64,000 bases of DNA from an uncultured Gammaproteobacteria bacterium (GCA_964355175.1 CAYHBZ010000001.1:445-64444); one strand, 5' to 3'; positions 29,973 through 53,825 are shown, counted from the first letter of the stretch. A program made the numbers and translations. The notes: generated from the letters alone by a model not told the origin.

Positions 29973-31751
29973 ATGGCCGATACTCAACTTATCAAAGAGA
30001 AGATAGATTTGGCCCAATTGGTGCAGGAATATGTGCCACTCAAAAAAGCGGGTATTTATTACAAAGCGCCGTGCCCATTTCATCGCGAAAAAACTCCGTC
30101 CTTCATGGTCAATGCCGAAAAGCAAATTTGGAAATGCTTTGGGTGTGGCAAAGGCGGGGATATTTTTTCGTTTGTGCAAGAAATGGAAGGTCTGGATTTT
30201 GTGGAAGCGCTGAAACTTTTGGCTGAGCGTGCTGGTGTAAAGATTGATAGCTATCGTAGTGAAATAGATAAAAGTCAAAAAAATCGTATTTTGGAAATAA
30301 ATCAAAAAGCCGCTTATTTTTTTCATCATGTATTATTAGAGATGTCCGCTTCAGCTGGCGCTCGTGAATATCTGGAAAATCGTGGATTAAAAAAAGAAAC
30401 TATCGAACAATGGCAAGTTGGTTTTATTCCGGATCAGTGGGATTTGCTCACGCAATATTTTCTCAAAAAAGGTGTGGGTATCGATGATCTTATGGCCGCC
30501 GGCCTTACAATAAAAAAAGATGCCGCTCGCGCCGGACAAGGATTTTATGATCGTTTCCGTGGTCGTATTATGTTCCCAATTTGGAATGTGCATGGCAATG
30601 TGGTGGGTTTCACCGGTCGGGTATTGGTAGAGACCGAGCACAGCGGCGGGAAGTATGTAAACACTCCACAGACTCTGGTTTATGATAAATCACGCGTGCT
30701 CTATGGCCTCAACAATGCCAAAACTGAAATAAAAGCCCAGGACCTAGCTGTAATAGTGGAAGGACAGATGGATGTGGTGGCCTGCCATCAGGCTGGTATG
30801 AAAAATGTAGTCGCCTCGTCTGGCACGGCTTTGACTTTGGAACAAATAAAATTACTAAAAAGATATTCACCAAATGTCGCCATGGCCTTTGACGCGGATA
30901 AAGCCGGAGTCGCCGCCGCCAAAAGGGGGATTGATATCGCGCTTACCGAAGGCTTAAATGTTCGCGCAATTTCAATTCCAGATGGTGCAGGCAAAGACGC
31001 TGATGAATGTTTGAAAAAAAATCCTCAAGTTTGGTTTGATTCAGTCAAAAATGCCAGCGATGTGATGGATTGGTTTTTTGCAATGGCGTTCAATAATAAA
31101 GATGTGTCTGGACCTAAAGCCAAACAGCAGGTGGCTGATGAGCTTCTGCCGCTGGTGGGCTTAATTCCATATGCTGTCGAGCGTGACTATTGGCTCAAAC
31201 AGCTCGGGGATCGTCTGGGAGTGGAAGTATCGGTATTGCGTGATGACCTCAAACGTTTTGATAAAAATAAAAAAGAAGGAAATCAGGTAGACAAAAGACC
31301 GGCGGTGGCCAAAGCCGCGCCGCTCGACACCGTAGAGCGCTTACTCCAGCGTCTACTCATGATTTGGAGCTCGCATCCGGAGTATATATCCGCTCAGTGG
31401 TCCAAGTTAAACTCCCGTTGTTATGTCGGAAGTGTTTATCAACACCTTTACGAATCCATAAAAAATCAGTATAATACCAGCAGTCCATTGAGCACTGCTG
31501 ATTGGCAGAATTTTTTTGTAAATACTGATTTGACTTCGGAGTTTGAAAATTTGAAAATGTTGGCCGCTATCGAGCCCGGTGAAACCGAAGATTCCGATCT
31601 GAAGATTGAAGGCGTAGAAATTGTAGTTCGTATCAATGATGAGTGGTCTAGAAAAAAAAGAAAAGAAATTCAATTTCAACTAGCGCAAGCCGAGAAAATC
31701 GGCGACAAAGAACTTTCCCAAAAATTATTTGTGGAGCTTCAAAATATTTAA
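29973..31751 (+). CDS. dnaG: DNA primase DnaG
   Basis: Zn ribbon CPFH...CFGCG, TOPRIM (EGQMDV..., DAD). Confidence 0.92.
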
Positions 31752-31753
31752 TT

Positions 31754-33070
31754 ATGCCAAAGAAGGTGCAAAAAAAGAAAAAAGTTTTAATGAAAAAATC
31801 AACACCAAAAAAACCGGTTAAAAAACCGGTTGTTAAGATTGTGAAAAAGGAAAAAAAGGTTACGGTCAAAAAACCACAGCCAAAAAAAGTTTTTAAACCT
31901 TTGAAGGCCAAGGCCAAGCTAGAAATTAAAAAACCGAAATTCAAGAAAATAATTCCGGTGGTGGAAGAAGTCGTAATAGAACCTACCAATGACGATCTCT
32001 ACAGATTAATCAGCAAGGGTCGTAATCGTGGCTTTATTACCGATATTGAAATGCTAGGGCTAATAAAGCGTCCGGAATGTTATTTGGATTTATACGAAGG
32101 ATTTTTGGATGCACTAGATCGCAATGGTGTGACTGTGGTGGAATCAAACGCGAATTTGCTCGGTGTAAAACCAGAGCACAAAGAAACCTTGAAACAATTC
32201 CAAGGGGCTCAGCCGGATATGGACAGTCCTTTTGATTTGGGTGAAATTTCCTCCGATTCAATTCAGATGTATTTGCGTGAAATTGGTAAAATTCCTTTGC
32301 TCAAAGGTGATGAAGAAGTATCTCTAGCCAAACGCAAAGAGCGTGGTGATAAAGTAGCCGAACGAAAAATTATTGAAGCCAACTTGCGTTTGGTAGTTTC
32401 GATTGCCAAAAAATTTGTCGGCAAAAGTTTGTCTTTGCTTGATCTGATTCAAGAAGGTAATATCGGTCTTTTCCGTGCCGTGAAAAAATTTGATCACCGC
32501 AAAGGTTATAAATTTTCTACTTACGCCACTTGGTGGATTCGTCAGGCTATCACCCGTGCTTTGGCCGACCAATCCCGTACCATTCGTATTCCGGTACATA
32601 TGGTGGAAACCATCAATCGTTTCCAACAAGTACAGCGCCGTCTTACTCAGGATTTGGGTCGTGACCCAACTCCGGAAGAATTAGCCGCCGAAATGGGCGA
32701 GGAAGTTACCAAAATTCAACACATTATCAAAATTTCTCAGGATACCGTATCGCTCGATGTGTCGGTGGGTGACGACGATGAAGATACTCAGCTCGGTGAT
32801 TTCATCGAAGATGTTAAAAATGTTTCACCAGATCGTGCTGCCGGATTGCAGATCTTGCGTGACTATGTCAAAGAGGCTATCAAGTCGCTTTCTCCTCGTG
32901 AACAAAAAATTCTCGAAATGCGTTTTGGGTTGGCTGATGGTGTAACCCATACTTTGGAAGAAGTGGGTCAGGAATTTGGGGTTACGCGTGAACGTATTCG
33001 TCAGATCGAAGCCAAGGCTTTGGAAAAAATTCAGCATACGGATTTGATTGGTAAGCTTAAGGATTATTAA
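31754..33070 (+). CDS. rpoD: primary sigma factor RpoD with a Lys-rich N-terminal extension
   Basis: Regions 1.2-4 ([23 protein letters not shown], region 4 HTH); residues ~1-80 are KKPVKK-type repeats. Confidence 0.93.
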
Positions 33071-33086
33071 TTTTTCTTCTGTCTTC

Positions 33087-33270
33087 ATCAACTAGGTATT
33101 TCCTCGCTCTCTCACCTATGAAAATCCTAGGATAATTTGCAACCCACCGAAGCTCTGGCCGTGAACTCGTCGCTTGGCTCCTCAAACAGCACGGCCAGCC
33201 ACGCTTCGTTGGCTCACAAATTATTTCCTAGGATTTTCAGCGGTTCGTTCGGAGGAAATACCTAGTTGAT
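33087..33270 (+). ncRNA. 184-nt nested palindromic element; candidate 6S-like RNA or MITE
   Basis: Perfect 19-bp terminal inverted repeats, ~20-bp inner inverted repeats, a 13/14-nt internal bubble and a GC-rich apical hairpin. Confidence 0.4.
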
Positions 33271-33280
33271 TCTTAATTAT

Positions 33281-34354
33281 ATGAAAATTGTCTTTTCTGG
33301 TGGGGGTACGCTTGGGCCGGTGACGCCGCTTTTGGCGGTGGCGCAGGCTTATAGGGAAAAATATCCGGAAACTGAATTTGTCTGGGTAGGTACAGTCAAT
33401 GGTCCGGAGCGTGAATTGGTGGAAAGAAATAATATTAAATTTGTCACTCTCACGGCCGGCAAATGGCGTCGTTATTTTTCTTTGTTAAATATTTTTGATA
33501 TTTTCCGTTTTGCTGTTGGTTTTTTTGAATCAGTGGTTTTTATTGTGCGCGAAAAACCCGCTTTACTAATTTCGGCTGGTGGGTATGTCAGCGTGCCTTT
33601 GCATTGGGCGGGGGCGATGTTTGGAATACCGCAGTGGATACACCAACAGGATTTTCAAGTTGGCCTGGCCAATCAGCTGATGAGCAAAACCGCCAAAGTA
33701 ATTACCGTGGCTCTGAAAAAAAATCTTTCCGCTTTTAATATTAAAAAAACTATTTGGCTTGGTAATCCGGTGCGTCCTGAGCTTTTTAAGGGAGATAAAG
33801 CGGCCGCGAAAAAAATGTTTGGTATAAAATCCGATCTGCCGGTAATCCTAGCCATGGGCGGGGGAACGGGGTCGCTGAAATTAAACCAAATGGTGGTGGA
33901 ATCTATTCAACATCTCCAAGGTTTCTGTGAAATAATTCATCTCTCCGGCAAAGAACGTCCGCAAGAATTAGTGGATCATGCCGCCAAATATTTTGATTAT
34001 TATCACCACTATCAATTTTTAAATAAAGAAATGGCCGACGCCTATGCGGCGGCGGATTTGGTAATTTCACGTGGCGGATTTGGTTCAATTTCCGAAATTG
34101 CCGCTCTGAAAAAGCCGGCGATCTTGATCCCGAAACCGGGCCATCAGTTTGATAATGTAAAATTTATTGCCGATGATCAGGCCGCTGTTTTTGTGGATGA
34201 GCGAGTTTCCGACGGTTTGTATCTTGCCAAAATTATAAAAAGGTTGTTAAATAATGATATCGAAAGAGTGCAGATGGCGAATAGGTTGAATAGTTTAATG
34301 CCTTCGGCTGAAAAGGAAGCTTTGGTTGATATAGTTAACAAATTATTAAAATGA
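33281..34354 (+). CDS. murG: MurG UDP-GlcNAc:lipid I N-acetylglucosaminyltransferase (GT28)
   Basis: MKIVFSGGGTLGP N-terminus; C-terminal GGxGS...PKPGHQ pattern; the ORF track extends to a TTG at 33266 inside the palindrome. Confidence 0.8.
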   Translation: MKIVFSGGGTLGPVTPLLAVAQAYREKYPETEFVWVGTVNGPERELVERNNIKFVTLTAGKWRRYFSLLNIFDIFRFAVGFFESVVFIVREKPALLISAGGYVSVPLHWAGAMFGIPQWIHQQDFQVGLANQLMSKTAKVITVALKKNLSAFNIKKTIWLGNPVRPELFKGDKAAAKKMFGIKSDLPVILAMGGGTGSLKLNQMVVESIQHLQGFCEIIHLSGKERPQELVDHAAKYFDYYHHYQFLNKEMADAYAAADLVISRGGFGSISEIAALKKPAILIPKPGHQFDNVKFIADDQAAVFVDERVSDGLYLAKIIKRLLNNDIERVQMANRLNSLMPSAEKEALVDIVNKLLK

Positions 34355-34596
34355 AACATTTTTAACGAATGTTTTGTATTAATAACATGGCAGGACAAGC
34401 AATTGTTTTGTCGGAGTCGCTAACGCGACCAAACACGCAAAGACCCGCTGAGAAATCAACGGGTTCTTTGTTTTTAAATTCTTTAAAATTAGCCAAAATA
34501 TTGTATTTTTTGAAACATAAAGCAGAGTATGCTCGTAGTAATTTCTGGGAGAGGGTAAAAAGGTCGAACTTTTTAATCATCTAATGTATATAAATT

Positions 34597-35418
34597 ATGA
34601 AAAAACTCAATTCATGGCTATTTATGACTCTTTTAGTTGGTTCTCTCGCCCTTGGTATTACCGCCTCTGCTCAGGATTCTGATGATAGAGATGTCAGAGT
34701 AGCGACTACCGCCAGTGTGGATGCCGAAGCCAGGGTAAACTTTGAAGGTTCAAATTTATTTCCTCCACTACCCGATGTATCCAAATTCCTTTCCAAACCG
34801 GCTTCTTCCAGCTCCGTATCCAGTAGTATGCAGAAAATAGTGGAAGCTGATATCAAGCTTGTGGACGCTCGTCTTTCCGCTTTAGCTAGTTTGAAAGTTG
34901 AAATTGATCGCAGTGCTTATTTGACCGCCAGCCAGAAAACTAGTTTGAAAGCTATGGTAGATAGCAATATTTCCGGGTTAACTACTTTGCTTGCCAAGAT
35001 TAAAGCCGATACGGATTTGGCCGTATTGAAAGCTGATTCAGAAAAAATTTATACCGACTTTCGTATTTTCTCCGTGTTTACTCCAAAGATCAAGGCATTA
35101 ATAGCGTTTTATTCTCAAGCCAATTATTCTGGAAAAGCCAATGAAGTATTGGTAGTGGTACAGAATAAGCTGAATGACTTCAAAGATGCTGGTGTGAATG
35201 TAGTGGCCAACCAGGCCGCCCTCGACGCCGCTAAAGCCTCTTTGGTTCAGGCCAACGCCAAGATTGGCACTATGACTACCAAAGCTTCGGATTTGAAACC
35301 TTCGGACTTTCCTACAATCAGCGCTACTGTAATTTCAGACCTGAAAGTAGGTGTTAGACAAGTTCGTGATTTCTTTGTCCAAGTAAGTAATAGTTTGAGA
35401 GCCGCTATTAGATTGTAA
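34597..35418 (+). CDS. secreted hypothetical protein
   Basis: Signal peptide (ASA-QDS), then an Ala/Ser/Lys-rich helical protein. Confidence 0.55.
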   Translation: MKKLNSWLFMTLLVGSLALGITASAQDSDDRDVRVATTASVDAEARVNFEGSNLFPPLPDVSKFLSKPASSSSVSSSMQKIVEADIKLVDARLSALASLKVEIDRSAYLTASQKTSLKAMVDSNISGLTTLLAKIKADTDLAVLKADSEKIYTDFRIFSVFTPKIKALIAFYSQANYSGKANEVLVVVQNKLNDFKDAGVNVVANQAALDAAKASLVQANAKIGTMTTKASDLKPSDFPTISATVISDLKVGVRQVRDFFVQVSNSLRAAIRL

Positions 35419-35599: not shown

Positions 35600-35672
35600 T
35601 GGGCCGGCCGGGGCTCGAACCCGGGACCTTATCCTTAAAAGGGATCTGCTCTACCAGCTGAGCTACCGGCCC
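35600..35672 (-). tRNA. tRNA-Lys (anticodon UUU)
   Basis: Manual cloverleaf: GGGCCGG acceptor, GCTC/GAGC D-stem, CTTTTAA loop, TTCGAGC T-loop; CCA not encoded. Confidence 0.85.
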
Positions 35673-35747: not shown

Positions 35748-36332
35748 GTGGATAATTGTATGATGGACAAAAAATATCTTCAGTCAATCAGGACTGATCT
35801 ACTTGGTTATGCGCAGAAAAGACGAGAAGTCATAAAGATGTCCGGTGACGCCCAGCAACACTCTAAAAAAGCCATTTTTGCCCTTCAGCGTGATGATAAG
35901 GCGGGTGCCGACGAGCGCTTTGCTTTGGCCAAAGCCTTATTTTTGGATTTGGAAAAAAAGTTTAAAAAAGAACCGGGTTTGCTCGACGAAGGCTCATATC
36001 GCGCCGCACTGGAAGAATATGTGGAAGCGGTTTTATTTCATGATTTTATTGCCGGCAAATCAGTTGGTAAAATAAAAAATATAGCTATAGATTCTGATGC
36101 TTATATTAGTGGCCTGTGCGATGTGCCGGGCGAACTCTATCGTTATGCTATCAAATCCGCCACGGCGCGTGATTTTGAAATGACCAAAAAATGTTTTGGT
36201 TATGCTCAAGAAATTATCGGTGAATTAATTGATATGGATCTTACCGGCTATCATCGTAATAAATTTGATCAGGCCAAACAAGCTTTACACAAACTCCAAG
36301 AAGTAGTCTACGAAGTAAGTTTGCGCGCCTAA
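35748..36332 (+). CDS. translin-family protein (putative)
   Basis: All-helical; SKKAIFALQR, EEYVEAVLFHDF, GLCDVPGELYRYAI resemble translin-family blocks. Confidence 0.5.
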   Translation: MDNCMMDKKYLQSIRTDLLGYAQKRREVIKMSGDAQQHSKKAIFALQRDDKAGADERFALAKALFLDLEKKFKKEPGLLDEGSYRAALEEYVEAVLFHDFIAGKSVGKIKNIAIDSDAYISGLCDVPGELYRYAIKSATARDFEMTKKCFGYAQEIIGELIDMDLTGYHRNKFDQAKQALHKLQEVVYEVSLRA

Positions 36333-53555: not shown

Positions 53556-53825
53556 ATATATAATAATTGGGTAACAAAAAAGGCTACCCGTAACTCTGGC
53601 GGCTCCTTGCGAAGCCCAACAGCCTTTCGACTGCTGACTGGAAAAACAATACCAGAGACGGCGTAGCCATCTCTATGTTTTTCCAGATTTTTGACCATAC
53701 CCGACGGAATTCGACGGGGTTAGGTCTGTTGAATTGTAAAGATAGTATATATTATCTACTTATTTTTATCAACACTTGACACTAATTTTAGTTACTGTAT
53801 AATACTCCTATTCCTTGGTGGAGTA

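Follow-up and report, generated by a model that had tools for sequence, protein, structure and literature searches.

Organization of the rpoD-murG junction

In our study, a stretch of 64 kb (64,000 nucleotides), referred to as the window, was analysed, and its nearest public genomes were found to be MAGs of Candidatus Magasanikbacteria (CPR/Patescibacteria). The dnaG, rpoD and murG genes form a tightly packed operon in the window, all on the plus strand. The spacer between rpoD and murG contained 210 nt and was composed of a flank (33071-33086), a palindrome of 184 nt (33087-33270) and a tail (33271-33280). The foldback begins 16 nt past the rpoD stop codon, directly 3' of the sigma-70 gene as an earlier note on this DNA had stated, and finishes 10 nt ahead of the murG ATG at 33281. 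The features of the junction are given below, where L and P numbers denote loci of relatives and public proteins, respectively.

29973-31751, plus strand: dnaG (Pfam)
31754-33070, plus strand: rpoD, primary sigma-70 factor (Pfam Sigma70 regions 1.2, 2, 3 and 4)
33068-33070, plus strand: rpoD stop codon TAA
33071-33086, plus strand: T/C-rich left flank TTTTTCTTCTGTCTTC, with a counterpart in L016 and L005 and none in the outgroups
33087-33098, no strand assigned: left arm of the outer stem, ATCAACTAGGTA, ending in TA (33097-33098); homolog of the left arm of the 24-nt hairpin of L016, GCCGACTAAATA
33099-33258, no strand assigned: foldback interior of 160 nt, TTTCCTC...GAGGAAA; candidate inserted (mobile) unit
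33259-33270, no strand assigned: right arm of the outer stem, TACCTAGTTGAT, starting with TA (33259-33260); fully paired with 33087-33098
33271-33280, plus strand: T-rich tail TCTTAATTAT, directly 3' of the stem
33281-34354, plus strand: murG (Pfam Glyco_transf_28 N- and C-terminal domains; P0001)

The public protein P0243 (426 aa) was found to be the product of rpoD, with the same C-terminus as the ORF of the window. For murG, an in-frame TTG is present at 33266 in the right arm of the palindrome, and the ATG at 33281 had been proposed as the more likely start. The public MurG protein P0001 (357 aa, 100% identical) begins at this ATG, and the MurG N-termini of all homologs, MKIVFSGGG or M[VA]KIVFSGGG, agree with it; murG is thus taken to start at 33281.

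Structure and predicted fold of the palindrome

A repeat search recovered the terminal inverted repeats, claimed to be perfect over 19 bp, at 33087-33105 and 33252-33270 (19/19 complementary). The second inverted-repeat pair described inside them is present at 33114-33132 and 33226-33244 (19 nt, 89% complementary); its perfect core contains 14 bp (33119-33132/33226-33239), and a further nested pair of 22 nt, 82% complementary, is found at 33132-33153 and 33203-33224. The GC-rich apical stem was likewise recovered and is formed by CTGGCCGTG (33155-33163) and CACGGCCAG (33190-33198). An internal bubble is present as claimed, but not with the 13/14 nt given for it: it consists of an 8 x 7 nt loop (33106-33113/33245-33251), a 3-bp ACC/GGT helix and a 2 x 2 loop, and measures 13 x 12 nt only when the 3-bp helix is ignored. 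The 160-nt interior contains the 8 x 7 loop, helices of 14 and 7 bp, a 4 x 4 loop and the apical stem.

The predicted fold had an energy of -88.6 kcal/mol on the plus strand and -100.9 kcal/mol on the minus strand (z of about -12 for both), and none of 200 shuffled controls was as stable as the palindrome. All 68 pairs of the plus-strand fold were Watson-Crick pairs and none was G.U, whereas the minus-strand fold contained four G.U pairs. This difference of four against zero was considered as a hint of an antisense RNA and was rejected, the count being too small (p of about 0.06, one-sided). When searched with up to three mismatches, the 19-mer of the terminal repeat was found only at its two arms in the 64-kb window (0.01 expected), and the palindrome was the sole long, high-quality foldback of the window.

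An assembly artefact was rejected because an identical copy was found in the ENA contig L004, the right half in the Logan contig L003 and a diverged homolog in an unrelated sample (L012). A protein-coding reading was also rejected: all six frames contain stops, and two 1-nt, frame-breaking indels distinguish the window from L012 within 57 nt. A scan of the plus strand found no promoter-like site in the palindrome, for example one driving murG. A promoter for murG inside the element was rejected as well, the lone minus-strand match occurring at the frequency expected from shuffled sequence.

The same junction in related genomes

The contigs of relatives were obtained through homologs of MurG and RpoD; P0244 and P0249 led to L016 and L019, and P0250 led to L017, which carries the L005 allele. 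In seven outgroup loci, among them L001, L010, L011, L013 and L014 (MurG 87-88% identical to that of the window), the rpoD stop codon and the murG ATG are separated by 1 nt (TAG-t-ATG). The spacer contained 2 nt in L015 and 7 nt in L007, L008 and L009, without a palindrome. L005, L006 and L017 (MurG 90%) were found to contain a 30-nt spacer, TTCGTCTTC-ATTTAACGGAT-TCTTAATTTT, with an 11-nt remnant. L016 and L019 (MurG 91%), which come from two independent samples, contained a 53-nt spacer with a perfect 24-nt palindrome made up of GCCGACTAAATA and TATTTAGTCGGC, flanked by ...ATCTTC on the left and TCTTAATTTTT on the right.

The contig of L012 (MurG 89%; reads SRR22388218) opens inside a diverged homolog of the element, the right arm of which can be followed over 69 nt as far as TCTTAATTTT-ATG; this copy has at least 69 nt, the contig being cut within the element, and is represented by its right arm only. 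L004 contained the element of the window unchanged and L003 its right half. The element is reduced in L005, L006 and L016-L019 and missing at the orthologous site in L001, L007-L011 and L013-L015.

Within the tail, TCTTAATT is conserved in the window, L012, L016 and L005. Read from it, the right ends are AAATACCTAGTTGAT in the window, AAATATTTAACCGTC in L012, AAATATTTAGTCGGC in L016 and CTTCATTTAACGGAT in L005, and since they can be aligned from TCTTAATT, the four are homologous. Homologous palindromes of very unequal size (184, at least 69, 24 and 11 nt) occupy exactly one position, beside TCTTAATT. In the MurG tree, the window groups with L005 and L016, and L012 groups with L007 and L015, the filled, reduced and empty states being interleaved.

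A 7-nt direct repeat, TCTTAAT, was observed to bracket ATCTTC plus the 24-nt hairpin in L016 (3434-3486) and L019 (803-855); its left copy is degenerate in the window (TCTTCTG). It is possibly an old target-site duplication that involved the hairpin module as a whole. The Logan/ENA contigs L003, L005-L009, L012, L015 and L017 often end in the last 30-175 nt of rpoD or in the element, and L003 begins at position 33175 of the window, at most 4 nt from the apex of the palindrome. Such ends are likely due to k-mers common to co-occurring strains and to low coverage, and they account for the absence of the left arm from the contig of L012.

Sequence conservation and pairing

Between the window and L012, murG was 81% identical at the DNA level and 47.7% identical at four-fold degenerate sites, which are saturated. 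The right half of the interior (33200-33258) was identical at 51 of 57 positions (89.5%), and its comparison with the local synonymous identity gave a binomial p of 4e-4 to 9e-7; GGCTCACAAATTATTTCCT is a conserved stretch of the interior. Just 5 of the outermost 12 nt were identical. Further inside the right arm, CCTAGGA and GAGGAAA of the window are replaced by CCTCGTA and GGGTAAA in L012. A local recombination tract was rejected as the cause of the interior conservation, since the adjoining synonymous identity, in the first 30 codons of murG and the last 75-174 nt of rpoD, was only 0.6-0.7.

In the outer stem, 5 of 12 pairs were changed on both sides between the window and L016 and none on one side only; for example, AA was replaced by GG in the left arm and TT by CC in the right arm. 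The stem was completely paired in both lineages in which the two arms are known (19/19 in the window and 12/12 in L016). On its 3' strand, TTCGTTCGG, the 8 x 7 loop did not differ between the window and L012. Among the right-arm positions, 1 of 19 unpaired and 14 of 52 paired positions were changed between the window and L012 (p = 0.055), and the contrast gave p = 0.42 without the outer stem. Conservation of the interior far exceeds that of neutral sites, and the adjoining stem changes at about the neutral rate yet stays paired. The conservation of the interior together with the perfect pairing excludes an old insertion decaying neutrally, which points to a mobile family that is active or, alternatively, to a hairpin under selection.

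Search for further copies

MITEs are defined as elements of 50-800 bp with terminal inverted repeats of at least 10-15 bp and a target-site duplication of 2-10 bp, without a transposase (PMC11602168). The 184-nt unit is small and non-coding, with stops in all six frames, and carries terminal repeats of 19/19 bp; the 160-nt interior alone has a perfect terminal repeat of 7 bp (TTTCCTC/GAGGAAA). Its presence and absence at orthologous sites among relatives also agree with a MITE. No clean direct repeat was found around 33087-33270 (TCTTC on the left, TCTTA on the right); TA is present on both sides of the 160-nt interior but also belongs to the palindrome. The MITE, which the earlier note had put forward as the alternative to an RNA gene, was partly supported, in architecture and insertion polymorphism but not in copy number, no second copy having been found in 64 kb.

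The window represents about 7% of a 954-kb contig, and no second copy was found in it, either by sequence or as a comparable foldback. The terminal repeat was absent elsewhere in the window, where an unsystematic look noticed no transposase or parent IS. A blastn search of phage records returned only 32-nt chance matches (E = 0.2), that of plasmid records returned none, and viral contigs scanned with the 19-mer conserved between the window and L012, the terminal repeat and an inner motif gave 0 matches. A six-frame peptide query against 5.8 billion proteins returned nothing and is uninformative, because known copies are equally missed by it. Exact scans with the 19-nt terminal repeat gave no match in the GTDB representative genomes and no true match in the JGI metagenomes. 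The single JGI match (L002) was rejected as a chance match, as it lies at the start of a 1203-aa ORF without an inverted partner. The 19-mer is made up of 12 nt of possibly host-derived stem and 7 nt of the interior, and is possibly locus-specific; if the element has the two layers proposed below, it is locus-specific, and the GTDB and JGI scans are therefore no test of copy number.

Origin and nature of the element

We consider the element to be a lineage-restricted, non-coding and MITE-like foldback insertion in an operon of Candidatus Magasanikbacteria (CPR), and not a 6S gene, with a probability of about 50%. At the same even odds, a foldback insert of about 160 nt would occupy the loop of a hairpin of the terminator type 3' of rpoD, would be kept as a DNA palindrome and would often be deleted. 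Membership among the MITEs is partly supported, as the architecture and the insertion polymorphism fit, and is unproven.

The outer layer would be the stem of 10-12 bp with the T-rich tail containing TCTTAATT, which stands alone in L016 and L019 and there looks like an intrinsic terminator after rpoD. The remnant of L016 scores as terminator-like, with a 10-bp stem, 5 G-C pairs, a 4-nt loop and the tail TCTTAATTTT (z = -6.9). In the window, the 160-nt interior takes the place of the short loop, the stem has an A/T-rich base (2 G-C among the outer 6 pairs), TCTTAATT contains 5 T in 8, and a simple scan reports no terminator; an A/T-rich stem base is weak for an intrinsic terminator. The inner layer would be the imperfect palindrome of about 160 nt (33099-33258), with TA on each side, which occupies the position of the hairpin loop. 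Either this layer is under constraint, or it is a mobile copy of much later origin than the host lineages. Two independent insertions into one loop would need strong target specificity. A single old insertion inherited vertically would need purifying selection, since the interior identity is 89.5%.

The structure is probably maintained as DNA, as suggested by the strictly Watson-Crick pairs and the mirrored changes in the arms, which arm-to-arm template switching would yield. Template switching between the arms of inverted repeats homogenises the arms and can expand them (PMC8604942, PMC13100816, PMC7202029). Homogenisation makes arms alike and not lineages alike, and the identity of the interior at 51 of 57 positions therefore needs recency or selection. 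A long DNA palindrome would also be truncated or lost frequently, and the series of 184, 24, 11 and 0 nt is as expected from this.

As part of the operon transcript, the element is predicted to give a hairpin of about 68 bp with the U-rich tail UCUUAAUU on its 3' side. Such a hairpin would most likely attenuate or terminate transcription and provide a site for the processing of double-stranded RNA between rpoD and murG, and the two genes, 1 nt apart in relatives, would then be uncoupled. By analogy with known transcript-borne elements, transcription is likely to be terminated in part between the two genes and/or the transcript to be processed there in the manner of RNase III. Among transcript-borne MITEs, Correia elements are cleaved by RNase III, ERIC alter mRNA stability and SPRITE resemble terminators (PMC10969869).

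A possible but doubtful alternative is that the element is not mobile and is a locus-specific, cis-acting structured element under selection, acting either as RNA (in the 3'UTR of rpoD or the 5'UTR of murG) or as a DNA hairpin. A single origin in the sub-clade's ancestor would have been followed by vertical inheritance, with the interior and the loops conserved in sequence and the closing stem only in pairing. It could attenuate transcription, stabilise the mRNA or bind a protein as a hairpin that tunes the rpoD:murG expression ratio. The interior identity between the window and L012 in spite of saturated synonymous sites argues for such selection, as do the 5 of 12 closing-stem pairs that differ from L016 and are still fully paired. 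The unchanged TTCGTTCGG in L012 and the excess of unchanged positions among unpaired bases (18 of 19, against 38 of 52 paired ones in the right arm, p = 0.055) point the same way, but this contrast is not significant without the outer stem (p = 0.42). The element always occupies one locus and was found nowhere else in the window, in the GTDB/JGI 19-mer scans or in phage, plasmid and viral contig sequences; it also lies on the transcribed strand of the operon with a conserved U-rich tail on its 3' side. However, it is dispensable, being 24 nt, 11 nt or absent in at least 4 of the 6 closest lineages and absent in all outgroups. The lack of G.U among 68 plus-strand pairs is unusual for helices held by RNA selection alone, Rfam families are unmatched, and perfect helices of 14 and 19 bp would be substrates of RNase III rather than typical regulatory folds.

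A palindrome with neither function nor current mobility is unlikely. In this explanation, a past insertion or duplication would have been kept symmetrical and trimmed by mutation at inverted repeats, through template-switch homogenisation and through deletion by slippage or hairpin processing. Mirrored changes, strictly Watson-Crick pairs and the graded deletions (184, 24, 11 and 0 nt) among relatives agree with it. So does arm homogenisation, which is documented (PMC8604942, PMC13100816, PMC7202029). A deletion of the centre could be mediated by self-complementary motifs of the AAATATTT type, which L012 and L016 carry in both arms. Against this, the interior identity of 51/57 beside saturated synonymous sites demands recency or selection, and the non-complementary 8 x 7 loop persists, its 3' strand being the same in the window and L012. 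No match to either arm was found in rpoD, in murG or elsewhere in the window, and the sequence was therefore not built in place from local DNA. Growth of the palindrome in place was rejected for this reason, and the outgroups contain no spacer to grow from.

Two further readings of the interior are conceivable, though rather improbable. It could be a sequence-conserved structured RNA of one Magasanikbacteria sub-lineage, co-transcribed with rpoD, such as a cis-regulatory or RNA-polymerase/sigma-binding hairpin setting the expression of rpoD and murG; or it could represent a mobile element, the first of its kind to be described in CPR, with the loop of a terminator hairpin as its specific target. 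Either of these, if true, would explain the interior identity of about 90%, the saturated neutral sites and the covarying closing stem.

A 6S-like RNA, as proposed in the earlier note, is very improbable. It would be processed from the rpoD-murG transcript and, as a mimic of an open promoter, would bind the sigma-70 RNA polymerase holoenzyme. The palindrome is similar to 6S RNA (RF00013) in its length of 184 nt, in its outline of closing stem, internal loop (8 x 7, or 13 x 12 with the 3-bp helix open) and long inner stem with apical loop, in its position directly after the sigma-70 gene and in the conservation of the 3' strand of the loop in L012. However, it fails the covariance model. The Rfam search proposed for it gave no family at the palindrome site of the window at gathering thresholds, and at E<=10 neither 6S nor another credible family was found on 551 nt or on the 199-nt element alone. 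The snaR-A and miRNA-precursor matches were rejected as generic hairpins (12-16 bits against thresholds of 43-98). A large central bubble as in 6S is not seen either; the largest loop is the 8 x 7 nt one near the base, just above the perfect 19-bp basal stem. The inner helices of 14 and 7 bp are perfect and free of G.U pairs, the irregular, bulge-interrupted helices of 6S are lacking, and no promoter-like site was found on the plus strand. The conservation of a housekeeping RNA was not found: most close relatives, and every outgroup, lack the element at the orthologous site. The Rfam results, the helix shape and this absence from most close relatives rule out a housekeeping RNA such as 6S.

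Integron attC sites carry R''/R' cores (RYYYAAC ... GTTRRRY) at the base of an imperfect hairpin and lie in a cassette array beside an integrase; the ends of the window's palindrome, CATCAAC ... GTTGATT, resemble these cores at 5/7 and 6/7 positions, and this candidate was rejected as the homologous ends of L012 (ACCGTC), L016 (GTCGGC) and L005 (ACGGAT) are unlike the cores and the neighbours are rpoD and murG, not cassettes.

Relation to known repeat families

The element belongs to the palindromic intergenic insertions, which are already known as a kind. As a MITE-like foldback insertion it is most readily compared with ERIC and Correia (CREE), the MITEs of enterobacteria and Neisseria, which are also small, non-coding, mostly or wholly palindromic, placed between the genes of operons and variably present. 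Both ERIC and Correia are reported to duplicate TA on insertion, and the TA on either side of the 160-nt interior would match this. In transcripts, they form long RNA hairpins acted on by RNase III or RNase E (PMC10969869). The element differs from them in having no sequence similarity and in its host phylum (here CPR). ERIC and Correia also reach tens to hundreds of copies per genome, whereas one copy was found here in 64 kb and none elsewhere in the scans. Unlike them, it sits in the loop of a pre-existing hairpin. It differs further from true MITEs in that its least conserved part is the outermost stem, whereas the termini of MITEs are the part recognised by the transposase.

For IS1397, specific insertion into REP hairpin loops is reported, which would be a precedent for an insertion that targets a loop. 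Terminator-like repeat elements made up of a hairpin and a T-tail, such as SPRITE, insert into one another (PMC10969869). Such families are multi-copy, whereas here the hairpin was found at a single locus. The mutagenesis of quasipalindromes by template switching and the instability of long palindromes resemble our case in mirrored multi-nucleotide changes, perfect complementarity and central or one-arm deletions. They are, however, a mutational process and not a family of elements, and explain upkeep and decay but not the origin or the conservation of the interior.

A literature search on small mobile or structured non-coding elements of CPR returned nothing relevant, the field being barely described. 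The relatives provide a natural series, from the empty site through the short hairpin and the half remnant to the full element, at one of the most conserved junctions of the genome. This series offers a clean setting in which to study the rise of long palindromes, their lasting symmetry and their loss in very small genomes. In practical terms, a tempting mis-annotation as 6S RNA was corrected and the start codon of murG was fixed.

Other features of the window

The N-terminus of RpoD (31754-31900, plus strand; P0243 and P0244) was found to contain a Lys/Pro/Val-rich low-complexity extension, the length of which varies among relatives. P0243 starts 12 codons 3' of the first ATG of the rpoD ORF of the window (426 aa against 438 aa). 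A full-length match to the LOOT RNA (RF03000) was found on the minus strand at 53601-53726, with 85.1 bits against a gathering score of 46.4 (E = 1.2e-14).

The spacer 3' of murG (34355-34596 in the window; 1154-1353 in L012) was identical at 97 of 117 positions (83%) in a local alignment of the window with L012, murG four-fold sites being saturated. It finishes in a terminator-like hairpin, AAAGACCCGCTGAGAAATCAACGGGTTCTTTGTTTTT. Gene calls in this spacer include a 72-aa ORF on the minus strand in L003 and L004 and a 44-aa ORF on the plus strand in L005, L006 and L017. The spacer may encode a conserved small RNA or a small protein.

An ORF of 273 aa without a Pfam match follows on the plus strand (34597-35418), and an ORF of 270-277 aa after murG is kept in L005, L006, L010, L011 and L017; L001 contained no ORF of at least 100 aa between murG and the translin gene. 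The Translin-family protein (PF01997, E = 1.1e-19) is encoded on the plus strand at 35748-36332 and is also present in L001 and L010. In the window, its gene is flanked by a minus-strand tRNA gene (35600-35672) and a Mur ligase gene.
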